The notes below the pieces were generated by a model. That model searched no databases and was not told where the DNA came from. It saw only the letters and a program-made list of their open reading frames with translations. The position numbers were made by a program, and so were the translations under genes. 41,696 nucleotides of DNA from Planctomicrobium piriforme (lineage in GTDB: Bacteria; Planctomycetota; Planctomycetia; Pirellulales; PNKZ01), in assembly GCA_945877965.1 (NCBI GenBank), contig CAMCTH010000001.1, positions 1 to 41,696 of the forward strand. The letters run 5' to 3'. Shown in pieces: positions 19,535 to 40,313 of this stretch; within the stretch, counting starts at the first letter, position 1; the number at the start of each line of letters is the position of its first letter.

Positions 19535-19552
19535 GTGTGCCGCGCCGCACAC
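19535..19552. promoter_or_regulatory. Dyad GTGTGC-N6-GCACAC (core GTGC-N6-GCAC), candidate enhancer (UAS) for an NtrC-type activator
   Basis: Perfect 6-bp arms read directly. The centre is about 73 bp upstream of the GG of the -24 element at 19617. The same core dyad occurs at 32983-32996 and 37317-37330. Confidence 0.4.
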
Positions 19553-19615
19553 TCTGGATTCGGCTCGCTTTCCGAATCGGGCTGTGCTTTCGCGAGAACG
19601 ACGAATTACCGCCTT

Positions 19616-19631
19616 CGGCACGAGGAATGCA
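19616..19631 (+). promoter_or_regulatory. Sigma-54 (-24/-12) promoter-like element
   Basis: CGGCACGAGGAATGCA versus consensus TGGCACG-N4-TTGCW. GG and GC have the canonical 12-nt register. About 50 bp upstream of ATG 19681. Confidence 0.5.
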
Positions 19632-19680
19632 ATTCTCGGCGAGCAACGACCGCACTCGTTCTTTCGCCGAGGAGTAACCC

Positions 19681-20079
19681 ATGTCGACGTCGTCGCCGTC
19701 CGGAATGCATCGCGATCATCGCGAATGGGAATCCGAAAATGCGTTGTGGCGCGATCAACTCCGCGAATGGCAGCGTGAGAACGAGCAGGCCGTCGCCGAA
19801 TTGAATCGGGCGCAACAGGTATTTCGCAATCACGAGCGGACGCTCGAAACGCACGCCGCCGGGATTCGGCTGTTCGGTCAGGCATGTGCCGAACACGAAC
19901 ATGATCTGGCCGCGAAGGCTCAAGCGGAAACGCCGCAAGCGTGCGGAATGTGCGGCCATGAACAAGAAGCGATCGACCACCGCCGCGAGCGCGAGATTCA
20001 TGAACGGATCAAACGCCGACATCACACGCTGATGGCTCAACTGGCGATGCTCATGCGTTCGCTGACCGAGACGGTGTAA
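19681..20079 (+). CDS. Hypothetical His/Glu-rich helical protein (132 aa)
   Basis: ATG-initiated ORF with coding-like codon bias and heptad-like helical sequence. Many H/E pairs (HRDHREWESE, NHERTLETH, EHEHD, HEQEAIDHRREREIHERIKRRHH) plus CGMCGH. Confidence 0.6.
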   Translation: MSTSSPSGMHRDHREWESENALWRDQLREWQRENEQAVAELNRAQQVFRNHERTLETHAAGIRLFGQACAEHEHDLAAKAQAETPQACGMCGHEQEAIDHRREREIHERIKRRHHTLMAQLAMLMRSLTETV

Positions 20080-20088
20080 GAGCAAGTC

Positions 20089-20112
20089 GGCCGCGGATCG
20101 GCCCGTTCTTTT
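20089..20112 (+). terminator. Weak hairpin plus T-rich tract (possible attenuator/terminator)
   Basis: GGCCG-cggat-CGGCC (5-bp stem) followed by cgTTcTTTT. Lies between the 132-aa gene and the cytochrome c gene. Confidence 0.3.
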
Positions 20113-20174
20113 CACGCTAATTGCTGAGCAAGCCGTCCCCTTTTTGATCGTACTGCATTGTGAGGAGTCGTCGG

Positions 20175-21236
20175 GTGAAGTGGAGTTCTTGGTTTCTGAC
20201 TGCGATCGGCTGCCTTTGTTTGAGCGGCTGTCAGCGGAGTGAAGTTCCGACGTACGAGCCGAGCAGCGCCGTGAAGGGACTGCCCGAAAAGGTGCAAAAG
20301 CAAGCGCACGAGGAACTCGTTAAGTACTTTGGAACTCCGCTCCGGCCGAAGCAGATCGGCGGCGAGACGATCGAGGCCGAGCATTTAGCGTACGGGGCCG
20401 AGGTCTATCGGCTGCGCTGCGCCGCGTGCCACGGAGTGACCGGAGACGGCAACGGGCCCGCGGCGTCGACGATGCATCCGCGCCCGCGCGATTATCGGCT
20501 TGGCATCTTCAAGTTCACGTCGACCGCCAACGGCCAGAAGCCGCTCCGAGAAGACTTGATGCGGACCGTCCGACGCGGAGCCCGCGGCACCTCGATGCCG
20601 GCCTTTTCCCTGCTGCCGGAGAAAGATCTTCAGGCCGTCGTCGATTACGTCTTGGTGCTCACACATCGCGGCGAACTCGAGTTGCTGTTGGCCGAGGAAG
20701 GGGATAGCGAAGGGGAGATCGACCCGGCGAACACGAAGAGCAACGTCCAGTCGATCTTGCGGCAATGGGAGGCGGCCAAGCAGCACGTCATCTATCCCAA
20801 GACGGCGGAGCCTCCGTACACGTGGGAGAGCATTCAACTGGGACGCGAGGCCTTCGTCAGCACCAGCGGCGATTGCTACAAGTGTCACGACAAAGACGGC
20901 AGCGCGCGAGTGACGGAGAGCGTCGGCAAAGATCCGTGGGGGCAACCGGCCCGCGCGGCCGACATCACGAGCGGCATGTTTCACGGCGGCGCGACTTCGG
21001 AAGATATTTATCGCCGCATCTATGCCGGCGTCACGCCGATGCCCGCCTTCGCGCTGAAGTACGCCGATCAACCCGAGACGATCTGGCACCTCGTGCATTT
21101 CGTGCAGTATACGTCGGGGGCTCGGCGGCGTGAGACGATGGCGCAGCAGGCGGCGATTCACAAACGGGCCGTTCCCGAGGCGGCAACGAGCGGTGTCGCC
21201 TCGCCGGCGACCTCGACGACGGCGGGAGGAAACTGA
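20175..21236 (+). CDS. Dihaem c-type cytochrome lipoprotein (possible CcoP-equivalent)
   Basis: GAGGAG lies 7 nt before GTG 20175. Lipobox LCLSGC. Two CxxCH motifs (CAACHG, CYKCHD). Directly upstream of ccoN/ccoO. Confidence 0.85.
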   Translation: MKWSSWFLTAIGCLCLSGCQRSEVPTYEPSSAVKGLPEKVQKQAHEELVKYFGTPLRPKQIGGETIEAEHLAYGAEVYRLRCAACHGVTGDGNGPAASTMHPRPRDYRLGIFKFTSTANGQKPLREDLMRTVRRGARGTSMPAFSLLPEKDLQAVVDYVLVLTHRGELELLLAEEGDSEGEIDPANTKSNVQSILRQWEAAKQHVIYPKTAEPPYTWESIQLGREAFVSTSGDCYKCHDKDGSARVTESVGKDPWGQPARAADITSGMFHGGATSEDIYRRIYAGVTPMPAFALKYADQPETIWHLVHFVQYTSGARRRETMAQQAAIHKRAVPEAATSGVASPATSTTAGGN

Positions 21237-21237
21237 C

Positions 21238-21915
21238 ATGAGCGATCGCCAAAATCCTCGCTGGACCGACGACGTCGCGGCGGAAGAAGACGAACGCCGT
21301 CAGAAGACGGCCGAGTTGGGCGCGCTGAAAGAACGCGTCGAAATGCTGGAAAGCGAACTTGCCGCGATGGGCGCGCCGCGCGGCGGCTTTCACGGCTACT
21401 ACACCGCCTACTATGCCACGAGCGGCTTCATGCTCGGCATGTTCGGCGCCTGCACGAGCTTGTTGTTCAACATCGTCGGCTCGTTGCTCGTCTCGCGCGG
21501 CGGAGCCGAAGAACAGCATCCGTTGCGATTAATTCAGATCTATCTCACATTCCCCTTGGGCGAACGGGCGCTGCATATGCAAAGCGGCCTCGCGCTGGCC
21601 GTCGGATGTTGCTTGTACATTGCGACCGGCATGCTGATGGGGATGTTGTTTCATTTGTTTCTGACTCGCTACACGGCCGGCGATTCGTTTGTCAAGCGCT
21701 TTGCGATCGTCAGCGTCCTGTCGTTGGCGGTTTGGATCGTCAGCTTCTATGGCATTCTCTCGTGGCTTCAGCCGCTGTTGTTTCACGGCCGCTGGATCGT
21801 CGATCTCATCCCGCCGTGGGTCGCTGCCGCGACGCATCTCGTCTTCGGCTGGACGATGGTCTTGGTCTATCCCTGGGGTCTCTACGTCCCGTATCAGGTG
21901 GAATCGGATAAGTAA
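21238..21915 (+). CDS. Hypothetical 4-TM membrane protein with N-terminal coiled-coil segment
   Basis: ATG 21238 is 1 nt after the cytochrome c stop. The stop TAA overlaps the ccoN ATG by 1 nt. Four hydrophobic helices. I do not recognise a family. Confidence 0.7.
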   Translation: MSDRQNPRWTDDVAAEEDERRQKTAELGALKERVEMLESELAAMGAPRGGFHGYYTAYYATSGFMLGMFGACTSLLFNIVGSLLVSRGGAEEQHPLRLIQIYLTFPLGERALHMQSGLALAVGCCLYIATGMLMGMLFHLFLTRYTAGDSFVKRFAIVSVLSLAVWIVSFYGILSWLQPLLFHGRWIVDLIPPWVAAATHLVFGWTMVLVYPWGLYVPYQVESDK

Positions 21916-23339
21916 TGAACGCACCGGAAATGGAATCTTCGTCCGCGATCGGCCCGGAGTCGGCGGCCGATCTCGAACGCCTCGTCGAGCGGAAGCTCGT
22001 GCTGTGGTATTACTTCGCCGCGCTCACCTACCTCATCGTGTCGATGTTGGGCGGATTGTTGATGGCGCTGCAACTCATTCAGTGCAATGAGCTGCAAGGG
22101 ATCGAGCTCCTGTCGCCGGGGCGGTGGCGAATGTTGCACACGAACGCCATCGCGTACGGCTTCTTGGCCAATGCATTCCTCGGCACGCTGCACTGGGCGA
22201 TCCCGCGGCTCACGATGCGGCCCGTGTTGAGCAAGCCGCTGTCGTATCTGATCTTCGCCGCGTGGCAGATCGTGGTCGTCAGCACGGCGGTGGGGATTTT
22301 GCTCGGCCAGGCGCAGGCCGTCGAATGGGGCGAAACGCCGGTCTGGATCGACCCCGTGGCGCTGCTGGGACTGCTGCTTGTGGCGGTCAACTTCATGGCG
22401 CCGATCGCCGGGGCGAAAGGGCCGATGTACGTCTCGTTGTGGTATTTCATGGCCGCGTTCGTCTGGACCTTTTTGACTTATGCGATGGGGAATTTCATTC
22501 CGCAGTACGTCGTCTGCGGCACGAACGCCGGTGCGATCGCGGGATTGTTTATCCACGATCTCGTCGGGCTGTTCGTCACGCCGCTCGGCTGGGGTTTGAT
22601 GTACTACTTCGTGCCGATTCTGCTCAAGAAGCCGATCTGGAGTCACGGATTGTCGCTCGTCGGCTTCTGGGGCTTGGCGTTCTTCTATCCGTTGCAAGGG
22701 ATTCACCACTTCCTCTACACGCCGATCCCGATGTTCTTGCAGTACGGGGCCGTCATTTCGACGATCGCCGTCGAGTTCGTCGTCGCCACGGTCATCGTCA
22801 ACTTCTTCGGGACGTTATACGGCTCGGGGCGAGCGGTCGTCACGAACTTGCCGATCCGCTGGTTCTATACCGGCATGATTCTGTACTTCGTCACCTGCTT
22901 TCAATGCGCGTTGCAAGTGACGCTGACGTTCCAGCAGCTGATTCACTTCACCGACTGGGTCGTCGGCCACGCGCATCTCGTCATGTTCGGCGTGTTCAGC
23001 CAATGGTTGCTCGGCATCATGACGTACTTGATCCCGCGCCTGACCGGCAAGGAATGGTACAGCCGGACGTTGTGCGAATGGCACTACTGGCTCTCGGCGA
23101 CGAGCATCGTCGTGATGTTCTTGGACCTGACGATGGCCGGGCTGTTTCAAGGTTGGTCGTGGAGCAGCATGCAGTACTGGGACCATTCGACGCAGGTCTC
23201 GCAACCTTTCTGGATCGTGCGCGTCTTCGCCGGCTTGGCGATGTTCAGCGGACAGATCGTGTTCATCTACAACATCTACCGCACGCTGAGCGGCCCACGA
23301 ACGGCGCCGGCGACGGGACTGCAACCCGCAACGGCGTAA
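21915..23339 (+). CDS. ccoN: cbb3-type cytochrome c oxidase subunit I
   Basis: 474 aa with about 12 TM helices. Conserved His-containing blocks LQGIHHFLY, DWVVGHAHLVMFGVF and WYFMAAFVWTF. Followed by ccoO. Confidence 0.95.
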   Translation: MNAPEMESSSAIGPESAADLERLVERKLVLWYYFAALTYLIVSMLGGLLMALQLIQCNELQGIELLSPGRWRMLHTNAIAYGFLANAFLGTLHWAIPRLTMRPVLSKPLSYLIFAAWQIVVVSTAVGILLGQAQAVEWGETPVWIDPVALLGLLLVAVNFMAPIAGAKGPMYVSLWYFMAAFVWTFLTYAMGNFIPQYVVCGTNAGAIAGLFIHDLVGLFVTPLGWGLMYYFVPILLKKPIWSHGLSLVGFWGLAFFYPLQGIHHFLYTPIPMFLQYGAVISTIAVEFVVATVIVNFFGTLYGSGRAVVTNLPIRWFYTGMILYFVTCFQCALQVTLTFQQLIHFTDWVVGHAHLVMFGVFSQWLLGIMTYLIPRLTGKEWYSRTLCEWHYWLSATSIVVMFLDLTMAGLFQGWSWSSMQYWDHSTQVSQPFWIVRVFAGLAMFSGQIVFIYNIYRTLSGPRTAPATGLQPATA

Positions 23340-23390
23340 AGTCGTCGCGATCGGATCGTTACTCCTCATCACCCTCCACTGCACGCGACT

Positions 23391-24101
23391 ATGTTTGAAA
23401 GTAAAGCAGGCGTTCTGTTCATCGGCGGGCTCGGGTTCTTTGTGCTGGCCTTTATCGCCAACGGCGCCGTCCCGATGCTCATGTATCGCGACATGCCGGA
23501 GCAGACGGTGCACGAAGTCGTGAACCCGAACGTGATGTATCAGTTCGAGGATTTGAATCGCCGCTTCCCCGAGGCGTTCAAGAAGTACGTCGGCGATGCG
23601 GCCGCCGAGAAGTGGGACGACAAGCAGTGGAACGAGCACTGCGCCCAACTACTCAAGGAAGGTCGCGATATTTACGTCGGCGAAGGTTGCTGGCACTGTC
23701 ACAGTCAGTTCGTCCGTCCCGTTTCGAATGAGTCGCTCCGCTACGGTCCCGTCGCCAAGACGGAGGAGTATCAGAATGAGTTGCAACGACCGGTCTTGTT
23801 CGGCACGCGTCGCGTCGGTCCCGATCTGTCGCGCGAAGGGGGCCGTCGTTCAAGCGACTGGCATGCCGTCCATTTTCTCAATCCCCCGCTGCTCTCGCCC
23901 CACTCGCCGATGCCGCGCTACACTTGGTTCTTCGACGAAGGGAACGCCGGCAAACCGAATCGCCGCGGACTGGCGATCATGACCTATGTGCAATGGCTCG
24001 GCTCGTGGTTGGAAAGCTATCCGTACTTTGAAGATTACCAAGCGACGTCGAATCTGAACCCCGAGCCGGCCGCCGCCGCTCCGAAGGCCGCGACGCCGTA
24101 G
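23391..24101 (+). CDS. ccoO: cbb3-type cytochrome c oxidase subunit II (monohaem)
   Basis: N-terminal TM anchor. CWHCHSQFVRP haem c motif. GPDLSREGGRRS and WHAVHFLNP blocks are typical of CcoO/FixO. Confidence 0.9.
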   Translation: MFESKAGVLFIGGLGFFVLAFIANGAVPMLMYRDMPEQTVHEVVNPNVMYQFEDLNRRFPEAFKKYVGDAAAEKWDDKQWNEHCAQLLKEGRDIYVGEGCWHCHSQFVRPVSNESLRYGPVAKTEEYQNELQRPVLFGTRRVGPDLSREGGRRSSDWHAVHFLNPPLLSPHSPMPRYTWFFDEGNAGKPNRRGLAIMTYVQWLGSWLESYPYFEDYQATSNLNPEPAAAAPKAATP

Positions 24102-24151
24102 TCTGCGTGTGACATCTCATCTGTGACCAATGTATCCCGAGAACTTTTCCT

Positions 24152-24463
24152 ATGCCTGCGCCCAATCGTCGTAAGAACCGTGTTTGGACCGTCGTGACGG
24201 TGCTGTTCTTTCTCGGGCCGGCAATGTTCGGTTTCGGCACGAAGTTCTACGAGCTTGTGCAGGTCTTTCGCGGCGATGCCTCGGGGGCGTTCGCCGTGAC
24301 GCCGATCGTGAACTATCTGCTGGCCGGTTGCGGCTTCTTGTTGCTCTTCGGCTGGGCGGCGAAAAACGGCATGTTTCGCGATATCGAACAGCCGAAGTTT
24401 CTCATGCTCGAAAACGAGAATCGTCTCGATGCCGTCGAACGGTCCGCCGCGCCGCACGCTTGA
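24152..24463 (+). CDS. Hypothetical 2-TM membrane protein in the oxidase operon
   Basis: 103 aa with two clear hydrophobic helices. Sits in the position where ccoQ/ccoP normally lie. Confidence 0.6.
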   Translation: MPAPNRRKNRVWTVVTVLFFLGPAMFGFGTKFYELVQVFRGDASGAFAVTPIVNYLLAGCGFLLLFGWAAKNGMFRDIEQPKFLMLENENRLDAVERSAAPHA

Positions 24464-24501
24464 TCCGACGGCTCCGCTATTTCGCTAAGGATTTGTCGCT
24501 C

Positions 24502-24690
24502 ATGCCGACTTCGAACTCGCAATCGCCTCAGGCCGAACATCAGCATCACCGTTACGTCACGAACAGCATTCCCTGGTACGTGCGGTTGGTGTGGGTCGGT
24601 TTTTGGGCCTTCGCCATTTATTACACGATCCAGTATCTGTTCCCGGCCTTGCAGGGAGAACTCGTCATTCCGCCGAGCCCGCCGCAGTAG
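24502..24690 (+). CDS. Small single-TM protein (CcoQ-like position)
   Basis: AAGGA lies about 10 nt before ATG 24502. 62 aa with one TM (WYVRLVWVGFWAFAIYYTIQYLF). Internal to the longer track ORF 24184-24690, whose upstream part is Arg-rich shadow. Confidence 0.5.
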   Translation: MPTSNSQSPQAEHQHHRYVTNSIPWYVRLVWVGFWAFAIYYTIQYLFPALQGELVIPPSPPQ

Positions 24691-24729
24691 TGTCGCGGTG
24701 CGACGGTAGTTTGGATTCACGAGACGACG

Positions 24730-26928
24730 ATGGCGATCCCCCCTTCTCCGTTCTGCGCGCATTGCGGCTTGCCGATACCGGGCGTTGCGATCGCTGCGCC
24801 GGTCGGAGAAGTCGACGAGCCGGAGTACTGCTGCTTCGGTTGTAGTCTGGCGGCGGCCGCAGATCGCGAGCGCATCGTCGACGGCGAGATCGGCGCGACC
24901 TGCTTTCGCTTGGCCCTGTCGGTCTTTCTGTCGCTCAACGTGATGATCTTCACGATGTGGCTCTGGACGCAGGAGATCTACGGCAGCGAAGGAACGAACG
25001 GCACGGCGACGGCCGTCTTGCTTTGGAGCGTCTGTCGCTATCTTTGCCTCGTCTTTTCGTTACCCGTGTTGTGGATGCTCGGCGGACCGGTGGCCGAGGG
25101 GGCGTGGAAGTCGCTGCGGCGCGGCGTGCCGACGACCGATCTGTTGCTCGTCGCCGGAACGTTGGCGGCCTATGCCTACTCGGTCGTGTCGACGGTCCGC
25201 GGCTCGGGACCGGTTTACTTCGAAATCGGCTGCGCGGTGCTGGTACTTGTGACGCTGGGACGCTGGCTCGAAGCGCGCGGCAAGCAGCAGGCGGTCGCAG
25301 CCCTCACCTCTTTGGAAAAGCTCCTCCCCGCCGAGGTTCGTCGCTACGACGGCGATGAGCTGCGGAGCGTGCCGCTCGATGCAGTCCAAATCGGCGATCG
25401 ACTGCACGTCGTCGCCGGCGAGCGGTTGCCGACCGACGGCCGGATTGTGCGCGGCGTCGCCTCGATCGATGCCCAACTGTTGACCGGCGAGAGTCGGCCG
25501 ATCGTGCGCGAGCCGGGCGACTCCGTGCTCGGGGGAACCCTCAATCTCGACGGCGATCTGACGATCGAGGTGACTGCATCGCCGCGCGGCGGCAGTTGGC
25601 AACGGCTACTCGATTGTCTGCGGGCTGCACGACAGATGAAGGGCCGATATCAGCAACTGGCTGATCGTGTTGCGGCCTGGTTCATGCCGGCCGTCGGCGT
25701 CGTCGCGCTGGCGACGTTCGCCTATCACACGACGCACTATGGTTTAGATCGCGGCCTGTTGGCGGCCTTGGCGGTCGTGCTGGTCGCGTGTCCCTGCGCT
25801 TTGGGGTTGGCGACGCCGTTGGCGGTGTGGGCCGCGTTGGGGACCGCCGCCCGCGCGCAGGTCTTGTTCCGTCATGGGGAGGCCTTGGAACGACTCGCAG
25901 GCGTGCGCGTCTTCGGCTTCGATAAAACAGGAACGTTGACCGACGGGCAACCGAGCGTCGAGCAGTTGGCTGTAGCCGATGAGACGTTGCTCGCGGAGAT
26001 TCTCGGGCGAACGTTAGCGACCGCCTCGGCCACGACGCACGATCTCTCGCGAGCGCTAGTCGCTTACTGTCGCACGCGGCACGTCGGGCCGGTGCCGTCG
26101 TGCAACGTCCGGACCTTGCCAGGGCGCGGACTGGAAGCTTCGTTCGTCGAACTCGCGACGCCCCTCTGGCTCGGCAGCGAACGCCTGATGCGGGAACGCG
26201 AATTGAAAGTGCCCCGCGCGATCGCCGCGGCTCTGCAACGTTTTCGCCACCAAGCCGTACCGTTTACATGCGTCGGCTGGAACGGTGAGGTTCAAGCGGT
26301 CTTTAGTTTCCGCGAACAGCTGCGCACGAGTTCACGCCCTGCGCTGGCTGCGTGCCGCGACGCCGGTTTGGCGGTGGAAGTGCTCACCGGCGACCATGCG
26401 GCCCGCGGACAACTGCTGGGGCGCGAACTCAGCGTCGTCGTTTGGGCGGAGCTTTTGCCCGAGGATAAAGTTCGCCGGCTCGTGGCGTTGCGATCGAAGG
26501 TCGGTCCGATCGCGATGATCGGCGACGGCATGAACGACGCTCCGGCGTTGAGCGCCGCCGACGTCGGGATGGCGCTCGGCTGCGGGGCCGACGTCTCGCA
26601 GCAGTCAGCCGACGTCTGCTTGTTGGGGAACGATCTGAGTCGCGCCCCGTGGGCTTACGGCTTGGCGCGACAGACGATTCGGATCGTGCGACAGAATCTC
26701 TTTTGGACGTTCGCATACAATCTCGTCGCCCTAGCGTTGGCGGCGAGCGGCCGATTGAACCCGATCTGGGCCGCGGCGGCGATGGCGGCCGGCGGTTTTT
26801 GGGTCGTCGGCAACTCACTGCGTTTGGCGCACTATCCGTTGCCCGTCGAGCCGTCGGCGGACGAACTTGCAGTGACGCCGCAACGCGACGCTTCGATCTC
26901 GCAGACGTCGCCGGAGTCGGTGCCATGA
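24730..26928 (+). CDS. ccoI: Heavy-metal (Cu) translocating P1B-type ATPase, CcoI/FixI-like
   Basis: N-terminal CAHCGLP...YCCFGCS metal-binding domain as in FixI. TGES, CPCALGLATP, FDKTGTLT and GDGMNDAPAL motifs. Located in the cbb3 context. Confidence 0.9.
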   Translation: MAIPPSPFCAHCGLPIPGVAIAAPVGEVDEPEYCCFGCSLAAAADRERIVDGEIGATCFRLALSVFLSLNVMIFTMWLWTQEIYGSEGTNGTATAVLLWSVCRYLCLVFSLPVLWMLGGPVAEGAWKSLRRGVPTTDLLLVAGTLAAYAYSVVSTVRGSGPVYFEIGCAVLVLVTLGRWLEARGKQQAVAALTSLEKLLPAEVRRYDGDELRSVPLDAVQIGDRLHVVAGERLPTDGRIVRGVASIDAQLLTGESRPIVREPGDSVLGGTLNLDGDLTIEVTASPRGGSWQRLLDCLRAARQMKGRYQQLADRVAAWFMPAVGVVALATFAYHTTHYGLDRGLLAALAVVLVACPCALGLATPLAVWAALGTAARAQVLFRHGEALERLAGVRVFGFDKTGTLTDGQPSVEQLAVADETLLAEILGRTLATASATTHDLSRALVAYCRTRHVGPVPSCNVRTLPGRGLEASFVELATPLWLGSERLMRERELKVPRAIAAALQRFRHQAVPFTCVGWNGEVQAVFSFREQLRTSSRPALAACRDAGLAVEVLTGDHAARGQLLGRELSVVVWAELLPEDKVRRLVALRSKVGPIAMIGDGMNDAPALSAADVGMALGCGADVSQQSADVCLLGNDLSRAPWAYGLARQTIRIVRQNLFWTFAYNLVALALAASGRLNPIWAAAAMAAGGFWVVGNSLRLAHYPLPVEPSADELAVTPQRDASISQTSPESVP

Positions 26929-27635
26929 TGGAACTCCCGCTCGTAGCGCTCGGCGGATTGCTCGGCTCGGCGCATTGCGTCGGCATGTGCGGTAGTTTTG
27001 CGCTGCGACTTGGGGCCGACGCGACGTCGTGGCGGGCGAATCTGCTACGGCAGACGATCTACGGCGGCGGACGATTGTTTAGCTACGCCGTGCTCGGCGC
27101 GGCGGCGGGTTACGGCGGACGGCAGCTGATTCACGCCACGTCGGTCGTCAACGTTCAGGCCTGGCTGGCGGTGATCGCCGGCGGCTTCTTGGTCTGGCAA
27201 GGATTGCAGTCGACCGGCTTGCTGCGTCGTCGCGCGGTGCGCGCCGGCAATCTCACATGCTTGGGGCCGGGCTTGATCGGCACGTTATTGCAGACGCGCG
27301 GCTTCACGGCGCCGTTGCTCGCCGGCGTGCTGACGGGCTTGCTGCCGTGCGGATTGGTCTACGCGTTTCTTGCGCTGGCCGTCAGCAGCGGGACGTTGCC
27401 GTGGGGTATGGCGACGATGGTTTGCTTCGGCCTCGGTACGTTGCCGTTGATGACCGCGTTGGGAATGGGAACCGCGTTGCTGGGGCTGGTCGGACGTCGG
27501 CGCATGCTGCAGTTTGCAGCTTGGTGCGTCGTGCTCACGGGGACGTTGTCGATCGTTCGCGGCGCGGGGGTGCTGCAGGCCGAGCCGGTCGCAGAGCAAA
27601 CGGCACCCGCCTGTCCGCTCTGTTTGGAACGTTGA
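26925..27635 (+). CDS. DsbD_2 / TauE-SafE-like membrane protein (HCVGMCG motif)
   Basis: ATG 26925 overlaps the ATPase stop (ATGA). Multi-TM. The N-terminal SAHCVGMCGSF motif is typical of the family often found beside ccoI/ccoS. Confidence 0.75.
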   Translation: MMELPLVALGGLLGSAHCVGMCGSFALRLGADATSWRANLLRQTIYGGGRLFSYAVLGAAAGYGGRQLIHATSVVNVQAWLAVIAGGFLVWQGLQSTGLLRRRAVRAGNLTCLGPGLIGTLLQTRGFTAPLLAGVLTGLLPCGLVYAFLALAVSSGTLPWGMATMVCFGLGTLPLMTALGMGTALLGLVGRRRMLQFAAWCVVLTGTLSIVRGAGVLQAEPVAEQTAPACPLCLER

Positions 27636-32899: not shown

Positions 32900-32981
32900 T
32901 TCGGGCTCGCCGCCGCCAGCAAGGATGCCCTCGCGCGGGGGACGAAGAGGGTGAGCGATCTTGCGCACTCGATGATCGGTC

Positions 32982-32997
32982 CGTGCTCAACCGCACG
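32982..32997. promoter_or_regulatory. Dyad CGTGC-N6-GCACG (core GTGC-N6-GCAC), candidate UAS
   Basis: Read directly. The centre is about 126 bp upstream of the -24 GG at 33116. A degenerate relative, GAGCGATCTTGCGCAC, lies at 32953-32968. Confidence 0.35.
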
Positions 32998-33114: not shown

Positions 33115-33130
33115 TGGAATGGAGATTGCT
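33115..33130 (+). promoter_or_regulatory. Sigma-54 (-24/-12) promoter-like element
   Basis: TGGAATGGAGATTGCT: TGG and TTGC are in the exact consensus register. About 75 bp upstream of ATG 33203. Confidence 0.45.
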
Positions 33131-33202: not shown

Positions 33203-33586
33203 ATGAAATCCGTTCTCTGGGTCGGTTTGTCTCTGTCGATGATCGGACTGGCGACGGTGCGGGGCGAGGAGCCTGCGACGGCGAAAGGGAGCGTCGTTAT
33301 GGCGAAGAAGCTGGAATACTCGCAGCAACTGCTCAGCGCGCTGATGACTGAGAACTACGACGAAGCGGATCGCAACGTGAAGTTGATGAAGATCTTCACG
33401 CGACTCGAAGAGATGTATCGCGGCAAAACGCCCGAGTACAAAGCGCAGCTAAAGAAGTTCCAAGATTCGGTCACGCAACTCTCGGCCGCCGTCGAGGCCA
33501 AGCAGCACGACGCCGCGTCGCAGGCCTATCTCGACATGCTGCAATCGTGCATCCAATGTCACAAGACCTTGCAGAAAACCAAGTAG
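33203..33586 (+). CDS. Class II (four-helix-bundle, c-prime/c556/b562-like) cytochrome c, secreted, copy 1
   Basis: Signal peptide, helical sequence, a single CxxCH at the extreme C-terminus (CIQCHK), and a Met in the first helix (VVMAKKLEY). Paralogue of 38545-38997. Confidence 0.7.
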   Translation: MKSVLWVGLSLSMIGLATVRGEEPATAKGSVVMAKKLEYSQQLLSALMTENYDEADRNVKLMKIFTRLEEMYRGKTPEYKAQLKKFQDSVTQLSAAVEAKQHDAASQAYLDMLQSCIQCHKTLQKTK

Positions 33587-33634: not shown

Positions 33635-35212
33635 ATGCCTCCCGTCGATCAACCGTCGTTGCCGATCGACCATGCCGCAGTCGTGCGCCGACTGAGCGAT
33701 CCGACGATGTACGGCAACCCGCCCGGCGGCGTCCGACGGGTCGAGACGCACATTTCGCAGGTCTTCATCACGGACCGATTCGTCTACAAGTTAAAGAAAC
33801 CGGTCCGGTTCGATTTTCTTGACTTCAGCACGGTGGAGAAGCGCGAGTTCGCCTGTCGCGAAGAGATGCGGTTGAATCGTCGGATGGCGCCCGACGTCTA
33901 TTTGGGTGTCGTTCCGCTCACCGCCTCGGCCGATGGCGTGCTGCAATTCTCAGGCGCGGGTCCGACGGTCGACTGGGTCGTAAAAATGCGTCGGCTGCCG
34001 GACGAGCGGATGCTCAATGAGTTGATTCGCCGCGGTCGGCTGACCGACGTCGATCGGCGACAGTTGGCGGAATACTTGGGGCGATACTACGCCGCAGCCG
34101 CGCCGCTCGTCGTTCGCCCTGACCAATTCATGGACTCGCTGTTGCAGCGGGTGAAAGAGAACCAGCAGGCTCTACTCTCGACGTCGGCCGCCGAGGGGGA
34201 TCAAGTCCGGCGGCTGCATTCGTTTCAACTACGCCTGCTCCGGTGTCGGCCGCAGGCGTTTCTCGACCGCCTGCTCGACGGTCGGATCATCGACGGTCAC
34301 GGCGATTTGCGGCCGGAGCATATCTGCCTGCTCGAACCTCCGGCCGTGTTCGACTGCCTGGAATTCAGCGCCGAGCTGCGTTGCGTCGACGTGCTCGATG
34401 AGCTCTGCTTCTTGACGATGGAATGCGATCGACTGCAGGCCGACGACGTCGGCGAGCAAGTGCTGCGGACCTACTGTACGCTGGCGCAAGACACGCTCTC
34501 CGCGTCGTTGATCGCGTTCTACAAATGCTATCGCGCTTGCGTCCGCGCCAAAGTCGCGGCGTTAAGGGCCGAACAGACGGCGACGGCCGAACGTGAGTCG
34601 CAGCAACTTCTCCAGCGGCAGTACCTCGATCTCGCCGACCGCTCCGTGCGCTCGGCCGGTTGTCGTCCGCTGTTGATCGTCGTCTCGGGGCTGATGGGGA
34701 CCGGCAAATCGACGCTGGCCCGAGCGCTCGGAGAGGAGTTGGCGATCGAGGTTCTGCGGACCGACGAACTCCGCGAGGAGCTGCTTCCTAAAGATCATCA
34801 GACCGCGGCGTTCGGCGAAGGCCGCTACACGCCGGAAGCGCGCGAACATGTGTATTCCGAGTTGTTTCGGCGGGCCGATCACCGGTTAGCGCAAGGGACG
34901 TCGATCTTGCTCGACGGCACCTTTAGCCAAGCCACGGTCCGGCAAGCGGCGCGGGATTGCGGCCGAGCGCGCGACGCCGACGTCGTGGAGATCGAATGCG
35001 TCTGCCCTCGCGAGATTGCTTTGCAAAGGATTCGATCGCGCCTCGGACAAGCCCAGGCCGATGTCTCCGAGGCGCGGCCGGAACTATATGATCGGCAAGT
35101 CGCCGAGCGCGAGGCGAGCGCCGCTTCAGCGTCGACCGTAACGATCGAGACGACGATGCCGCTGCACACACAGCTCGCAAACGTGTTCGCCGCGCTGCCG
35201 GCGATGGCTTAA
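33635..35212 (+). CDS. Bifunctional aminoglycoside-phosphotransferase-like / P-loop (AAA_33) kinase protein
   Basis: The N-terminal half has an APH/choline-kinase-like catalytic block IIDGHGDLRPEHICL. The C-terminal half has Walker A VSGLMGTGKSTLARAL and ILLDGTF. Confidence 0.8.
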   Translation: MPPVDQPSLPIDHAAVVRRLSDPTMYGNPPGGVRRVETHISQVFITDRFVYKLKKPVRFDFLDFSTVEKREFACREEMRLNRRMAPDVYLGVVPLTASADGVLQFSGAGPTVDWVVKMRRLPDERMLNELIRRGRLTDVDRRQLAEYLGRYYAAAAPLVVRPDQFMDSLLQRVKENQQALLSTSAAEGDQVRRLHSFQLRLLRCRPQAFLDRLLDGRIIDGHGDLRPEHICLLEPPAVFDCLEFSAELRCVDVLDELCFLTMECDRLQADDVGEQVLRTYCTLAQDTLSASLIAFYKCYRACVRAKVAALRAEQTATAERESQQLLQRQYLDLADRSVRSAGCRPLLIVVSGLMGTGKSTLARALGEELAIEVLRTDELREELLPKDHQTAAFGEGRYTPEAREHVYSELFRRADHRLAQGTSILLDGTFSQATVRQAARDCGRARDADVVEIECVCPREIALQRIRSRLGQAQADVSEARPELYDRQVAEREASAASASTVTIETTMPLHTQLANVFAALPAMA

Positions 35213-35241: not shown

Positions 35242-35442
35242 TTATAGCGTCATCAGCACGGTGCCGAACATCATCAGCGTCCCCATGACGACGATCGCCA
35301 GCAGCACGCCCGTGACGCTACGGCCCGCGAAGAGATCTTCTTCAAGCATCGCGCGACGGTCGTCCGGCGAGAACGTCCGGAACGTCGCGCCTAACGAAGA
35401 TTCATCGGCTAGTAAGTTCGCGATCGGGTCGACGTGCGACAT
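35242..35442 (-). CDS. Small tail-anchored membrane protein (66 aa), hypothetical
   Basis: High GC3 codon pattern consistent with neighbouring genes. GAGAG-type SD about 8-10 nt before ATG 35442 (alternative GTG 35451). C-terminal TM VTGVLLAIVVMGTLMMFGTVLM. Has its own sigma-54-like promoter upstream. Confidence 0.45.
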   Translation of the reverse strand: MSHVDPIANLLADESSLGATFRTFSPDDRRAMLEEDLFAGRSVTGVLLAIVVMGTLMMFGTVLMTL

Positions 35443-35517: not shown

Positions 35518-35533
35518 CGCATCTCACGTGCCG
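35518..35533 (-). promoter_or_regulatory. Sigma-54 (-24/-12) promoter-like element (minus strand)
   Basis: The minus strand reads CGGCACGTGAGATGCG. The context TTCGGCACG-N4-ATGC is identical in pattern to the element at 19616. About 65 nt upstream of the small ORF start. Confidence 0.45.
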
Positions 35534-35644
35534 AATCGGCCCGCGTTGAGAATGTCGCTCGGACTCGTCTCGGTAATTCTCGCGTGCCAATGACTTACGA
35601 CGAATAAGACGTTTTGCAGTCGGACGCGAGCCATGAACCGTCGC

Positions 35645-35690
35645 CGTGCGGCTCCGAGACGTCTCCGCACGCGTGAGACGTGCGAGCACA
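35645..35690. promoter_or_regulatory. Cluster of dyad and direct repeats, candidate UAS region
   Basis: GTGCGG (35646-51) is inverted with CCGCAC (35665-70). Perfect palindromes GAGACGTCTC (35656-65) and CACGCGTG (35668-75). GAGACGT is repeated at 35656 and 35675. Lies 115-160 bp upstream of the minus-strand -24 element. Confidence 0.3.
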
Positions 35691-35722: not shown

Positions 35723-37129
35723 CTACATCGACATGCTTTGCGAGTCGGCCGCGGCCGTATCGTTCAGCGTAATCTGGTATCGCTCTAACAATCGATACAA
35801 GCTCCGTCGGTTCACTCCCAAAGTCCGCGCGGTGCGGGCTTTGTTACCTCGTTCACGCCGCAGCATTTCGACGATATGCGCCCGTTCGAGCGACGCTAAC
35901 GTCGTGTCGGCTTGGGTGAACGGAATCGTGGGAGAATGCGCAGCCGCCGCCGGTGCCGCTAGCTGAGTCACGTCGCGCGGCAGGTCTTGGAGTCGCACCA
36001 GGTTGTCGTCGGCCAGAATCTTGGCGCGATCGATGGCATTGCTCAGTTGCCGGATATTGCCCGGCCACGAATAACGTTCGATCGCGATCTGCGCCGCCGG
36101 TTCGATGCGCCATTGCGGACCGAGAAACTTCTGCACGAGCGGGCCGATGTCGCCGGCCCGTTCGCGGAGCGGCGGCAGTTGCAGCGACATCACGTTGATG
36201 CGGTAGTACAAATCCTCACGGAAGCGACCGGCTTTGACTTCCGCCGCCAGATCGCGATTCGTGGCGGCCAGCAGTCGGACGTCGACGCGTCGTTCGGTGA
36301 GCGAGCCGATCCGCCGCATCGAACCGTCTTCCAACACGCGCAGCAGTTTGGGTTGCAACGAGCCGGGCATCTCGCCGATCTCGTCGATGAACAGCGTGCC
36401 GCCGTCGGCGATTTCGAACAGGCCGGGCTTTGCGGCGACGGCCCCGGTAAATGAGCCTTTTTCGTGGCCGAACAGTTCGCTTTCCAACAAGTTCTCGGCC
36501 AGCGCCGCGCAGTTGATTACCACCAGCGGTTTGTCGGCCCGCAAGCTGCGACGATGCAACGCACGCGCGACGAGCTCTTTGCCGGTGCCGCTTTCGCCTT
36601 GAATCAGGACGGCCTTGTCGGTCGGGCCGGCCCGTTCGATCAGACGATAGACCTCTTGCATGGCCCCCGACTGCCCGATCATATCCGGAGCCGATTGCGA
36701 GCGCGCCAAGATCTGCTTTAACTGCAGATTCTCTTTGGCGAGCTGCCGGCGCGCGACGGCTTTGTCGAGCACGACTTCCAGTTCGGTGAGCGGACACGGC
36801 TTGGTCAGATAATCAAACACGCCGAGCTTCATCGCTTGCACGGCCGACTCGATCGTCCCCTGCCCGGTCAGCAACACGACTTCGACGTCGGGCTGCAGTG
36901 CCTTGAGTCGTTCGGCGAGTTCGACGCCCGACATGCCGGGCATCGCCATATCGAGCAGCGCGACGTCGAAGTGACGACGTTGCGCCGCCTGCAGCGCCGC
37001 TTCGCCGTCGCCGGCTTCGGCGACGCGAAAGCCGCGACGGGCCAATCGCCGCACGACGGTCTCGCGGTAGTCGGCTTCGTCATCGACGACGAGTAGGTCG
37101 ATCGTTTGCGGACTGCGTGCTTCGCTCAT
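35723..37129 (-). CDS. Sigma-54-dependent NtrC-family response regulator (REC-AAA+-HTH), copy 2
   Basis: ATG 37129. REC (LLVVDDEAD...VALLDMAMPGMSG), GESGTGKE, ESELFGHEKGSFTGA, HTH GNKARTARTLGVNRRSLYRLL. Long runs are identical to copy 1. Confidence 0.9.
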   Translation of the reverse strand: MSEARSPQTIDLLVVDDEADYRETVVRRLARRGFRVAEAGDGEAALQAAQRRHFDVALLDMAMPGMSGVELAERLKALQPDVEVVLLTGQGTIESAVQAMKLGVFDYLTKPCPLTELEVVLDKAVARRQLAKENLQLKQILARSQSAPDMIGQSGAMQEVYRLIERAGPTDKAVLIQGESGTGKELVARALHRRSLRADKPLVVINCAALAENLLESELFGHEKGSFTGAVAAKPGLFEIADGGTLFIDEIGEMPGSLQPKLLRVLEDGSMRRIGSLTERRVDVRLLAATNRDLAAEVKAGRFREDLYYRINVMSLQLPPLRERAGDIGPLVQKFLGPQWRIEPAAQIAIERYSWPGNIRQLSNAIDRAKILADDNLVRLQDLPRDVTQLAAPAAAAHSPTIPFTQADTTLASLERAHIVEMLRRERGNKARTARTLGVNRRSLYRLLERYQITLNDTAAADSQSMSM

Positions 37130-37316
37130 GGTGTGATGGAGGAGGGCGGTGTGGGTGGGAGGGAATCGATCGACGTTCGGCACCCGCGCCGAGCACATCG
37201 TCGCGGTTCGCAGCGGACTAAATGCAATCGCCGTACCGGATTACGCAGAGCCGGTGCGAACGACGAATAGATGCCGCTTTCCCGCATATATCGTCAAAAG
37301 AGGGGCCGAACGGAAT

Positions 37317-37338
37317 GTGCGATCTCGCACGATCGTGC
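37317..37338. promoter_or_regulatory. Overlapping dyads GTGC-N6-GCAC (37317-37330) and GCACGATCGTGC (37327-37338), candidate UAS
   Basis: Both palindromes read directly. The centre is about 110 bp upstream of the -24 GG at 37437. Lies in the divergent region between NtrC copy 2 and the usp operon. Confidence 0.4.
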
Positions 37339-37435
37339 CCTGCCGCCCGTTGCTCACGCGCGCGAGCGGCGCACCGTAATCGCGAAGACCCGCGAAATGC
37401 CGAGGGAAAACGTCGCCCACGCGTTCGCGATCGGC

Positions 37436-37451
37436 CGGCACTCGATTCGCA
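37436..37451 (+). promoter_or_regulatory. Sigma-54 (-24/-12) promoter-like element
   Basis: CGGCACTCGATTCGCA: GGCAC and GC are in the canonical 12-nt register. About 100 bp upstream of ATG 37551. Confidence 0.5.
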
Positions 37452-37550: not shown

Positions 37551-38012
37551 ATGAAACTGAAAACGATTGTGTTCCCCTGCGATTTCTCCTCCAAAGGAAA
37601 CGAAGCCCTGGAGTACGCGACGACGTTGGCGCGCGAAAGCGGAGCGCGGCTGCTGATCGTGCATGTGCAAGAACCGCCCATTGCTTATGCCGAAGGGGCT
37701 TTCTACTACGGAATTCCGGACCCCGATCCGGATGCCCTCCGCGGCATGTTGCAGCAGGTCAAGCCGCACGACGCGTCGGTAACGTGTGAACATCGATTTG
37801 TGCAGGGTGATCCGGCATCGCAGATCGTGGAGTTGGCGACGAAAGAACAGGCCGACCTGATCGTGATGAGCAGCCACGGTCGCACCGGACTCGGTCGGCT
37901 GATCATGGGAAGCGTGGCCGAAAGCGTGCTGCGTCAGGCGGCCTGCCCGGTGCTGGTCGTCAAACCGAACACGCAAGTTGCGTCGGCCGCGACCGTAGGG
38001 AGCAAGGGATGA
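37551..38012 (+). CDS. Universal stress protein (UspA family)
   Basis: KTIVFPCDFS...ALEYATTLARESGARLLIVHV and the C-terminal ATP-binding-type block DLIVMSSHGRTGLGRLIMGSVAESVLRQAACPVLVVK. Confidence 0.85.
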   Translation: MKLKTIVFPCDFSSKGNEALEYATTLARESGARLLIVHVQEPPIAYAEGAFYYGIPDPDPDALRGMLQQVKPHDASVTCEHRFVQGDPASQIVELATKEQADLIVMSSHGRTGLGRLIMGSVAESVLRQAACPVLVVKPNTQVASAATVGSKG

Positions 38013-38482
38013 GCAACGACTTTCACGTTCACGAAGTGAATCCCTACTACGTGCAGGCGGTCGGCGAGCATCGCGACTTGCATGCGGCCGTCGAGCGGAT
38101 TCGGCAGGTGCTCGAAGGGCGCGCCGAACGGGACGCCGCGACGGCCGACGTCGCCGCCGCCAAGGCTTTGATCCTCGCCCTGCGCGAGCGACTGGCTCGC
38201 CACTTTGCCCAAGAGGAAGAAGGGGGCTATCTCGACGAGGCCGTCACGCGCGTACCGAAAATGGCGCCGCAAGCGAGGAGTTTGCAGCGACAGCATCACG
38301 AGTTTTTGGATCTGGCCGATGCGATGCTCGCCGACGCCGGCGGCGACGAGGCGGCTCCGGTCGTCTGGTCGAAGCTGAAGTCCGACTACGTCTCGTTTGC
38401 CAAGCGACTGAGTGCGCACGAAGCGGCCGAAGACGTGCTGCTGCAACGGGCCTTTAACGAGGACCCGGGAACGGAATTGTAA
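38009..38482 (+). CDS. Hemerythrin-like (HHE cation-binding) domain protein
   Basis: ATG 38009 overlaps the usp stop (ATGA). Helical protein with spaced H/E motifs (EHRDLH, HFAQEEEGGY, QHHEF, HEAAED). Confidence 0.6.
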   Translation: MSNDFHVHEVNPYYVQAVGEHRDLHAAVERIRQVLEGRAERDAATADVAAAKALILALRERLARHFAQEEEGGYLDEAVTRVPKMAPQARSLQRQHHEFLDLADAMLADAGGDEAAPVVWSKLKSDYVSFAKRLSAHEAAEDVLLQRAFNEDPGTEL

Positions 38483-38544
38483 CGGCCGTGGATCATCCTC
38501 CTCGGCATCTGAGCTTACTGAAATCAACTTAGCAGGAGTCCCCT

Positions 38545-38997
38545 ATGTATCGTCGCTTGCTCGCCGTCGCCGTACTCGTTGCCGTTTCGCTCGTTGCCGT
38601 CTCGGGTCGGTCGGAGCAACCGAATCAGGTGGCGCCGTTCATGAAGCTGAAGTTAAATCATGCGCAGACCTTGCTCGAAGGGATTGCGCTGGAAGATTTC
38701 GCGTCGATCGAGAAGAACGCGCAGCAGTTGAGCCTGCTCAGCCAAGATGAACGTTGGCAGATTTTGCAGACGCCTGCGTACTTGCAATACAGCATCGAGT
38801 TCCGTCGGACCGCCGACGAACTCGGTGCCGCGGCGCGCAAGCACAATCTCGACGGCACCGCGTTGGCCTACGTCGCCCTCACGCTGAAGTGCGTCGAATG
38901 TCACAAGCACGTCCGCGACGTTCGTCGGGCGAGCCTGGACGATTTGAAGCCGATTTATTTGGGCAGCTTGTTGCCGCAAGGACCGCCGGCCAAGTAG
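38545..38997 (+). CDS. Class II (four-helix-bundle) cytochrome c, secreted, copy 2
   Basis: Signal peptide, Met in the first helix (PFMKLKLNH), and a single C-terminal CxxCH (CVECHKH). Alignable by eye with 33203-33586. Confidence 0.7.
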   Translation: MYRRLLAVAVLVAVSLVAVSGRSEQPNQVAPFMKLKLNHAQTLLEGIALEDFASIEKNAQQLSLLSQDERWQILQTPAYLQYSIEFRRTADELGAAARKHNLDGTALAYVALTLKCVECHKHVRDVRRASLDDLKPIYLGSLLPQGPPAK

Positions 38998-39070
38998 TCG
39001 TCGAAGCGGCATCCGCTCGCAGCGAACGTTTCTTCTAGCTTTTAAACAGCATCCTCTCAGGACCGATACG

Positions 39071-39505
39071 ATGAAAAACAGCGCCGGCGTGTGGATCGAT
39101 CAGAAGAATGCCAAGGTCGCCTACCTGGACGAGGCGAAGAAAACGGTCGCGAAGTACTCGATCGAAGCCGACGATGCCGGCAAAACCGTCGCGGCCAAGC
39201 GTGCGAAAGCGTCGTACACACCGAACGATTTCGTCGCCGAAGATCGTCTTGAACGCAAGCAGGCAGCGCTCCGCAAGAAGCTCTACGATCAGGTGATCGC
39301 CGACCTGCAAGACGTCGAGTCGGTGCTGATCGTCGGTCCCGGCGAGGCGAAGTTGGAGTTTCAGAAACGTCTGCGGAGCAAAAAGCTGCGGACGATCGTC
39401 GTCAAGACGGAGTCGACCGACAAGCTGACCGATCGCCAGCTGATTGCCTACGTGCGCAAGTTTTTCCAGGCGGCGCCGCCCCGCAAGACCGTCCGACGGG
39501 CGTAG
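39071..39505 (+). CDS. Hypothetical protein (possible eRF1-fold / host-attachment-like, tentative)
   Basis: 144-aa ATG ORF with coding-like composition. AGVWIDQKNAKVAYL at the N-terminus and SVLIVGPGEAKLEFQKRL resemble bacterial eRF1-like (baeRF/host attachment) proteins, from memory only. Confidence 0.55.
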   Translation: MKNSAGVWIDQKNAKVAYLDEAKKTVAKYSIEADDAGKTVAAKRAKASYTPNDFVAEDRLERKQAALRKKLYDQVIADLQDVESVLIVGPGEAKLEFQKRLRSKKLRTIVVKTESTDKLTDRQLIAYVRKFFQAAPPRKTVRRA

Positions 39506-39743
39506 CGCAAGAGTGCGACGAGCACCGGTCGCGGACTTGCGCAACGGCCGGATCCGGCGCACTCCTGGGACCCCTAGCGATGCGGTTGTTGCGACGTTTC
39601 GACGATCGCCGCGGCGCACGGATGCGCCGTGTCAGGCGGTTTTGGGTCGCCGGTCGGCGGTGGGGTGCGCTTGGTTTTCCGCGACGGCTTCGCTAGAACT
39701 CCAGTCGGTATCGACAGGGACGTTTCCGGCGGGGAGTGTGCGG

Positions 39744-40313
39744 ATGAAGGAGCCTGATGCGGCGACGGTCGCGGATCAGCCGGTCACGGTGAACATCGTC
39801 CGCACGGTTCGGCCGGGGCGCGAAGCTGAGTTCGAAATCTTGATGCGGGCCTTTATCCCGCTGGCCCTAACCTTTCCCGGGCATCTGGGCGTGCACGTCG
39901 TGAAGCCGGCGGCGCAGGCCTCTCGCGACTATCACATCATCATTAAGTTTGCGACCGGCGAACAGTGGCGGAGCTTTCAGGCTTGGCCCGAGTATGAACA
40001 ATTTCGCACGATGATCGAGCCGTTGCTGGAACGGGAGCCGTGCGTGAGGGAGATGTCGGGACTGGAGAGTTGGATCACGATGCCGCATGCCGCGACGTTG
40101 CGTCCCCTGCCCCGCTGGAAGATGGCGACCGTCACGTTGCTGGCCGTCTATCCGACAAGCCTGTTCATTACCGAGTTCCTTCGGCCCCGGCTGCTGCACT
40201 GGCCCGTCGCGGCGCAGAGTTTGATCTATGCGATGTGCACGGTCGGCTTGCTGACGTGGGTGATCATGCCGCTGCTGACCCGGTGGCTGGCGCGCTGGCT
40301 CTATCCGCGTTAG
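39744..40313 (+). CDS. Antibiotic-biosynthesis-monooxygenase (ABM)-like domain protein with C-terminal TM helices
   Basis: ATG 39744. About 100-aa ferredoxin-like ABM pattern (VTVNIVRTVRPGREAEFEILMRAF...HIIIKFATGEQWRSFQAWPEY), followed by two hydrophobic helices. Confidence 0.6.
   Translation: MKEPDAATVADQPVTVNIVRTVRPGREAEFEILMRAFIPLALTFPGHLGVHVVKPAAQASRDYHIIIKFATGEQWRSFQAWPEYEQFRTMIEPLLEREPCVREMSGLESWITMPHAATLRPLPRWKMATVTLLAVYPTSLFITEFLRPRLLHWPVAAQSLIYAMCTVGLLTWVIMPLLTRWLARWLYPR

Follow-up and report, generated by a model that had tools for sequence, protein, structure and literature searches.

A 41.7-kb stretch of planctomycete DNA (contig CAMCTH010000001.1 of Planctomicrobium piriforme; here called the window) probably encodes an oxygen-sensing relay of the NmpRSTU type together with part of its sigma-54 regulon, with the features under study spanning 19.5 to 40.3 kb. 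In Myxococcus xanthus, NmpU is a protoglobin histidine kinase, NmpT a dual-receiver phosphate sink, NmpS a receiver-kinase hybrid and NmpR an NtrC-like activator (PMC6211767). For the planctomycete system, the direct observations comprise the architecture of the domains, the integrity of the catalytic and haem residues, the conserved clustering of the genes, and the enrichment and replication of two DNA motifs (a sigma-54-like promoter and an upstream dyad). A sequence-only reading of the same DNA had proposed one coordinated sigma-54 module responding to oxygen, and this proposal is supported by comparative genomics, with conserved clustering and with recurring promoters that carry the dyad. 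The gene types listed in it (a cbb3 oxidase with a copper ATPase, sensors, regulators, Usp and a hemerythrin) are all present as judged by domain matches.

ENA metagenome assemblies contain scaffolds with the identical sequence, and the closest named relatives of the window are Pirellulales metagenome-assembled genomes (MAGs). A genome scan with the globin kinase described below led to loci in planctomycete MAGs (numbered with the prefix L), and contigs with homologues of the activator NtrC1 (69-79% identity) were then compared. A metagenome scan with the same kinase returned only 17 loci, most of them short.

Signalling genes and their clustering in relatives

The sensor of the putative relay is a globin-coupled histidine kinase of the NmpU/AfGcHK kind (28919-30094, minus strand) with Protoglobin (1.2e-30), HisKA and HATPase domains. 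AfGcHK is the best solved-structure match of its globin domain (E = 6e-28), and in the alignment of the two proteins the distal Tyr and the proximal His are kept; the H-box His is also present. The NmpT-like protein (28194-28916, minus strand) consists of two Response_reg stretches without an output domain, and both of its phospho-acceptor Asp residues and both Lys residues are intact. The sensor operon ends with a DUF4405-like membrane protein (27657-28097, minus strand), identified by a weak Pfam match. On the plus strand, a receiver-first hybrid kinase without a sensor domain (30365-31489; REC and HATPase) resembles NmpS. Its H-box is atypical (LTHESGN), and its DHp-CA core resembles AtoS/ZraS-type kinases. 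The position of NmpR is taken by NtrC1 (31511-32899, plus strand; REC, sigma-54 AAA+ and HTH_8 domains), which begins 22 bp beyond the end of the hybrid kinase gene and is read as co-transcribed with it. The phospho-acceptor residues are intact in all four signalling proteins.

NtrC1 has a paralogue, NtrC2, on the minus strand (35723-37129). The two had been described as very similar NtrC-type activators, which agrees with their 67% identity and with their GAFTGA (NtrC1) and GSFTGA (NtrC2) loops. The HTH recognition helix is nearly invariant across the NtrC paralogues and orthologues.

Clustering of these genes is conserved among the relatives. All four signalling genes lie together in the window and in L022, L023 and L024, with a more distant counterpart in L027, and the trio of globin kinase, dual-receiver protein and hybrid kinase is clustered in many Planctomycetota MAGs (L001, L005, L010, L011, L028 and L036). 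Genes of the regulon type recur near the regulators of these relatives: a cbb3 cluster in L024 and L045, hemerythrin and cytochrome c' in L045 and L046, Usp in eight loci, NiFe hydrogenase with maturation genes in L022 and L047, and HSP20, CBS and baeRF proteins in L042, L044, L047 and L048. A comparison of gene neighbourhoods and promoter motifs had been suggested along with the proposed module, and in the related loci both the core and the promoter layout recur.

Some sequences beside the signalling genes deserve mention in their own right. The divergent region between the globin kinase and hybrid kinase genes (30114-30138), parts of which are common to L022, holds a 14-nt imperfect palindrome. 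It also contains GCGAAAGCTATGCGC, which differs from the M. xanthus NmpR consensus by one mismatch and is the only such intergenic site in the window. A perfect 10-bp palindrome, GAGACGTCTC, is found just past the NtrC2 stop codon (35640-35690); it stands between GTGC and GCAC that are 17 bp apart and could be a terminator stem or a further protein-binding site. Among the relatives, L042 has a protoglobin gene of 218 amino acids (aa) without kinase domains (8092-8748) directly upstream of its hybrid kinase and NtrC genes, which may be a split or degenerate sensor variant. L006, a Singulisphaera MAG, carries two copies of the globin-coupled kinase within 7 kb (695-1876, and 7147-8304 on the minus strand), one of which adjoins a copper ATPase and a DsbD_2 gene.

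Candidate sigma-54 promoters and the upstream dyad

We scored both strands of the window with a heuristic sigma-54 matrix built on the published consensus. The three top matches are all intergenic and all co-oriented with the genes downstream: P2 (TGGAATGgagaTTGCT, 33115-33130, plus strand; score 15.1, the best in the window) lies 73 bp before a cytochrome c'-like gene; P1 (cGGCACGaggaaTGCA, 19616-19631, plus strand; score 13.8, second best) lies 49 bp before the start of orf132; and P5 (cGGTACGgcgaTTGCA, 37223-37238, minus strand; score 13.0, third best), newly found here, lies 94 bp before the NtrC2 start. P4 (cGGCACTcgatTCGCA, 37436-37451, plus strand) is found 100 bp before the Usp start, and P3 (cGGCACGtgagaTGCg, 35518-35533, minus strand), a sigma-54-like element, precedes a gene for a 66-aa protein. 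In the predicted promoters, the -24 GG and -12 GC elements have canonical spacing. The sequence-only reading had picked out P1 to P4 as heading its listed transcription units. All four lie at the coordinates it gave and are within the window's nine best matches, and P2 and P4 do head such units, whereas P1 heads orf132, which was not on the list, and P3 is without supporting evidence. In Planctomycetia, sigma-54 promoters of Usp and NtrC-family genes have been reported from an in silico survey, and sigma-54 regulons are described both for this group and for Pirellula sp. strain 1 (PMC12316311).

The dyad GTGC-N6-GCAC occurs in the window in exactly three copies, at 19537, 32983 and 37317. As had been claimed, each lies upstream of a -24 element, and this placement is significant, with three of the three copies intergenic. 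The first (GTGCCGCGCCGCAC, 19537-19550; matrix score 20.8), 74 bp upstream of the P1 -24 element, has the extended form TGTGC-N6-GCACA. The second (GTGCTCAACCGCAC, 32983-32996), 128 bp upstream of the P2 -24 element, has a weaker partner at 32953-32966. The third (GTGCGATCTCGCAC, 37317-37330) is shared between the divergent promoters P4 and P5, 114 bp from the former and 88 bp from the latter, and a weak second dyad in this NtrC2/Usp region (37335-37348) has its centre 18 bp from that of GTGCGATCTCGCAC.

It might be argued that these are chance motifs in GC-rich intergenic DNA and that the genes use ordinary promoters. Across the whole window, loose sigma-54 patterns are indeed not enriched, nor are dyads with one mismatch, and the dyad count is insignificant when taken alone (1.27 copies expected by shuffling, with three reached in 13 of 100 shuffles). 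The promoter case therefore rests on position and replication, for which statistics were taken on a 180.5-kb set, 11.2% of it intergenic, made up of the window and seven loci that have public gene calls. In the 103 upstream regions of this set, 15 sense sigma-54 matches score at least 12, compared with 0.52 in dinucleotide shuffles, an enrichment of about 30-fold that none of 300 shuffles reached; the density of such matches is 22 times that in coding DNA. When we enumerated the 3,328 palindromes of the form 4-Nx-4 (x from 0 to 12), GTGC-N6-GCAC came out top by intergenic count (11 intergenic, 3 coding) and was the only top palindrome with more intergenic than coding copies. Since 8 of the 11 intergenic copies lie outside the window in which the motif was discovered, they replicate a pre-specified motif. 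The chance explanation, to which we give hardly any weight, is largely refuted by where the motifs lie, how they are oriented and that they occur together, by their replication in ten related loci and by the rarity of strong dyads in more distant planctomycetes.

That rarity is marked, with only two strong dyads in 191 kb of more distant planctomycete loci, and the dyad is therefore not phylum-wide. In the 180.5-kb set, the distance from dyad centre to -24 element is 74 to 140 bp. The flanks extend the consensus to TGTGC-N6-GCACA, and a matrix scan placed second sites 18 to 43 bp from the first; the 18-bp spacing recurs in the NtrC2/Usp regions of the window and L045. Helical phasing of the dyad-promoter distances is weakly suggestive (Rayleigh p ~0.02, post hoc, n = 10) and is not relied on. 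Some of the "coding" dyads fall within Arg-rich, seemingly spurious open reading frame calls. Two such low-complexity calls on the minus strand, L024 11980-12315 and L042 5576-6352, seem to mask intergenic DNA and contain strong dyads (at 12096 in L024 and at 5702 and 5732 in L042). Sigma-54-like matches scoring 10 to 12 also occur inside the copper ATPase and CcoO coding DNA of the window (26249 and 23868 on the minus strand, 23628 on the plus strand), with no dyad near; these are probably chance or intragenic sites.

Sigma-54-like promoters with the dyad recur before Usp, hemerythrin, cytochrome c', cbb3 oxidase and P-loop kinase genes (including the kinase orthologues of L023 and L048), and in the relatives they are also found before hydrogenase and HSP20 genes. 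Three further loci, L046, L047 and L048, repeat the layout of dyad and promoter. In L047 and L048 it precedes NtrC genes, baeRF-led operons and a small-gene operon, and the baeRF-led operon of L047 runs on into hydrogenase genes. An NtrC2 gene divergent from Usp-hemerythrin-cytochrome c' genes, with a central dyad and two promoters in between, is seen in the window, L045 and L046. In L046 the two promoters lie about 110 bp on either side of the central dyad, and in L045 a single operon, divergent from the NtrC gene, comprises Usp, hemerythrin, cytochrome c' and the entire cbb3 cluster.

A rival reading is that the window holds two circuits rather than one. If NtrC1 served the globin relay and NtrC2 were an orphan answering to an unlinked kinase or signal, the two could still meet at shared promoters or in mixed rings. 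Such a division is possible, although we are inclined to doubt it. NtrC2 has no adjacent kinase gene, its receiver domain differs from that of NtrC1 in the helix-1 region, and the NtrC2-type genes of L045 and L046 lie apart from sensor genes. On the other hand, a sigma-54 promoter and the shared dyad precede the NtrC2 gene itself, the two proteins hardly differ in their DNA-reading helices, and both are encoded within 6 kb of the sensor genes in the window. Because of its own sigma-54 promoter, the shared dyad and the DNA-reading helix, we take NtrC2 as a regulon member that amplifies the response of a single relay.

Further details of the related loci stand apart from these comparisons. NiFe hydrogenase operons with Hyp maturation genes adjoin the sensor/NtrC module in L022 (1-5618, minus strand) and L047 (12899-17386); paired dyads lie upstream of the former, at 6201 and 6230, and a strong sigma-54-like site at 10979 in L047 heads the operon that starts with a baeRF gene. 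A 215-aa protein with a Cys-rich C terminus (CAHCRRFRR...HxICEPCLGFYY) is encoded directly downstream of the NtrC1 orthologue in L022 (11784-12431) and L023 (11618-12262), behind a sigma-54-like promoter and dyad. The counterpart position in the window is taken by the cytochrome c'-like gene.

Predicted targets and mode of action

The first predicted target, directly behind P1, is orf132 (19681-20079, plus strand), which encodes a His-rich, predicted helical protein of 132 aa; Pfam and NCBIfam gave no match to any known family. Homologues occur among regulon genes of the relatives (L023 1306-1710; L024 20542-20937, minus strand; L048 2359-2763). This family of about 130 aa shares the motifs H-x-EH-x2-W-x2-EN-x2-W and a C-terminal KRHH, and it may bind a metal or haem. 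The cbb3 oxidase cluster follows on the plus strand (20160-27635), assigned by domain matches. It comprises a CcoP-like c-type cytochrome with two cbb3 subunit III-type domain stretches, possibly dihaem (20160-21236), a membrane protein (21238-21915), CcoN (21915-23339; PF00115, 6.6e-63), CcoO (23391-24101; FixO, 1.4e-34), two small proteins (24152-24463 and 24502-24690), a copper P1B-ATPase (24730-26928; TIGR01511, 1.8e-126) and a DsbD_2 protein (26925-27635). The cbb3 genes of the window would be reached from P1 by read-through past orf132 and a weak hairpin. Unlike in the window, the link between cbb3 genes and promoter is direct in L024 and L045, and the L024 cluster has its own sigma-54-like promoter. 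Scans for terminators and sigma-70 promoters gave counts at chance level and are uninformative on operon ends.

Behind P2 lie the first cytochrome c'-like gene (33203-33586, plus strand; PF01322 at 27.9 bits, the cutoff being 26.5) and a gene for a 525-aa protein (33635-35212, plus strand). The latter had been described as an APH/P-loop kinase. Its C-terminal P-loop AAA_33 kinase domain stands, but Pfam, NCBIfam and PDB sequence searches gave no support for an APH-like N-terminal part. P4 heads a gene run on the plus strand (37551-40313) that encodes Usp (37551-38012; 9.9e-34), a hemerythrin (38009-38482; 2.4e-8), the second cytochrome c'-like protein (38545-38997), a 144-aa protein (39071-39505) and, at its end, an ABM-domain membrane protein (39744-40313). 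The two cytochromes had been called paralogous. Both are indeed cytochrome c'-like, each with a signal peptide and a C-terminal CxxCH, but they are only distantly related, at 24% identity (pairwise E = 4e-12). P3 would serve a 66-aa membrane protein of unassigned function (35242-35442, minus strand), which has no homologues among the small genes of related loci.

From the homologous M. xanthus system, we infer the order and sign of phosphotransfer, the induction at low oxygen and which NtrC protein binds the dyad. Oxygen on the haem would cause the globin kinase to autophosphorylate and to pass phosphate both to the dual-receiver sink and to the hybrid kinase's own receiver, where it would keep the hybrid kinase off. 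When oxygen drops, the globin kinase would fall quiet and the hybrid kinase would phosphorylate NtrC1. Phosphorylated NtrC1 would then assemble on TGTGC-N6-GCACA dyads 74 to 140 bp upstream of the -24/-12 elements and open sigma-54 RNA polymerase complexes. In the window it would act on orf132 with (by read-through) the cbb3 cluster, on the gene pair for the first cytochrome c'-like protein and the P-loop kinase, and on the operon of Usp, hemerythrin and cytochrome c'. The NtrC2 gene would also be a target, and NtrC2 probably amplifies or prolongs the response. In M. xanthus, NmpU, of which AfGcHK is treated as the homologue, needs haem for its kinase activity, and the hypoxic induction of a reporter depends on NmpR (PMC11841059).

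As the sign of the relay is not fixed by sequence, the opposite polarity has to be weighed, that is, a simple positive chain with the regulon on when oxygen is present. Kinases of the AfGcHK type are active in their oxygen-bound state (PMC8697598), and phosphorylation could, in principle, stimulate a receiver-kinase. We nevertheless regard this polarity as unlikely. The two M. xanthus kinases act reciprocally and the reporter there goes up under hypoxia (PMC11841059), and the predicted targets are typical of low oxygen, namely, cbb3 oxidase, Usp and hemerythrin in the window and hydrogenase and HSP20 in the relatives.

A further alternative is that the haem sensor reads NO, CO or redox state and that the module is mainly a nitrosative-stress response. 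The cytochrome c' class is known to bind NO and CO, the regulon includes two cytochrome c'-like proteins, and haem globin sensors can bind several gases. The distal Tyr that stabilizes bound oxygen in AfGcHK is kept in the globin kinase, however, and neither the window nor its relatives contain NO reductase, Hcp or NorR-type genes, which makes a sensor for these other signals improbable. We retain oxygen as the probable signal of the NmpRSTU-type relay.

Several observations weigh against the relay and regulon as set out here. An rpoN box, sought in the window and in 609 kb of fetched loci, was not found. The divergent intergenic region between the sensor genes has neither a sigma-54 site nor a dyad, and the sensor operons are thus unlike those of M. 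xanthus. No dyad was found upstream of P3, whose 66-aa gene has no homologue in relatives; it is the weakest candidate of the promoter set. A weak hairpin resembling a terminator separates orf132 from the cbb3 genes, although such hairpins are only as common as expected by chance. Finally, the M. xanthus NmpR site GCGCA-N5-TGCGC has no exact match in the window and is under-represented at up to two mismatches (56 versus 93 expected), and we therefore infer binding of the dyad by these NtrC proteins from position only. The absence of the NmpR site is a difference in specificity, not in architecture.

A bolder reading, which we put forward tentatively, is that Pirellulales have rebuilt the NmpRSTU relay into a larger dormancy-like programme. 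Two NtrC paralogues would share one enhancer code, with one activating the gene of the other as a positive-feedback or mixed-ring amplifier, and the regulon would extend beyond oxygen use as an independent sigma-54 counterpart of the DosR regulon. It may include NiFe hydrogenase, HSP20, CBS and baeRF-type proteins, P-loop kinases and cytochrome c'-like proteins.

The first 19 kb of the window have the gene content of a typical planctomycete, with DUF1501, PSCyt/PSD families and a sulfatase. In repeated gene pairs, PSCyt/PSD-domain proteins have DUF1501 or DUF1552 partners (25-1407, 5933-10527 and 13279-17161), and the sulfatase and a PPC-domain protein are also encoded within 1-19460. Neither a sigma-54-like promoter nor the dyad was seen in that interval.

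Comparison with known systems

The proposed module had been set apart from FNR, FixLJ and DosRS control, and no FixJ/NarL-type or CRP/FNR-type regulator domain was found in any gene of the window, in keeping with that distinction. FixL is a PAS-haem sensor kinase, and FixJ, FixK and FNR are not sigma-54 activators. What the window would share with FixLJ-FixK/FNR systems is a high-affinity oxidase raised at low oxygen, in the case of FixL through a haem sensor kinase, but FixL, FixJ, FixK and FNR are not encoded in it. In Mycobacterium tuberculosis, the haem-based kinases DosS and DosT sense hypoxia and Usp proteins abound in the DosR regulon. DosR itself belongs to the NarL type and works at sigma-70-type promoters, and the DosS/DosT sensors use GAF domains, not globins. 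Likenesses to the window lie in haem-based hypoxia sensing, as predicted here, and in a Usp-rich regulon, with HSP20 and CBS proteins in relatives of the window; the regulators are non-homologous, so the resemblance is functional only. AfGcHK of Anaeromyxobacter sp. Fw109-5 (PDB 5ohe) resembles the globin kinase in its haem-ligating His, its distal Tyr and its two-receiver partner, but its biochemistry concerns the sensor pair only, with the output undefined there.

The closest counterpart is NmpRSTU of M. xanthus. The same four domain architectures are encoded together, a likeness judged by architecture and the AfGcHK match. The predicted output is likewise NtrC-type, at sigma-54 promoters through paired upstream dyads (here in silico only), with autoregulation of an NtrC gene. 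In M. xanthus, NmpR binds GCGCA-N5-TGCGC dyads, which occur in pairs upstream of the sigma-54 promoters, and among the members of its "oxygen utilization regulon" are a CBS protein, a Usp, a P-type ATPase together with a cbb3 oxidase, hemN with hemerythrin and the nmpU operon (PMC11841059); the cbb3 oxidase with P-type ATPase, Usp and hemerythrin are common to both systems. The planctomycete system differs in its phylum and in its enhancer, TGTGC-N6-GCACA. It also differs in having a second NtrC paralogue behind its own sigma-54 promoter, in sensor operons that lack a sigma-54 promoter (i.e., are not autoregulated) and in the lack of a link to pilus genes. Extra targets are cytochrome c'-like proteins, a P-loop kinase and orf132 in the window and NiFe hydrogenase, HSP20 and baeRF proteins in the relatives.

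A haem-globin route to sigma-54 control at low oxygen, studied so far only in Myxococcus, appears to be conserved, for largely the same targets, in a phylum that is distant and little studied. The analysis yields a predicted enhancer sequence and promoter set for Pirellulales, a group common in soils, sediments and waters where oxygen fluctuates, and the layout of enhancer and promoter can be used for annotating many MAGs and for picking candidate low-oxygen genes without an assigned function, such as orf132. The arrangement had been presented as undescribed in Planctomycetota, which was an overstatement, as the signalling core matches M. xanthus NmpRSTU (PMC6211767, PMC11841059), and nmpSTU homologues had been noted in Planctomyces sp. 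SH-PL14 in 2018 (PMC6211767). New here is an NmpRSTU-type system distant in phylum and with an enhancer code of its own; the arrangement itself is not new in kind.

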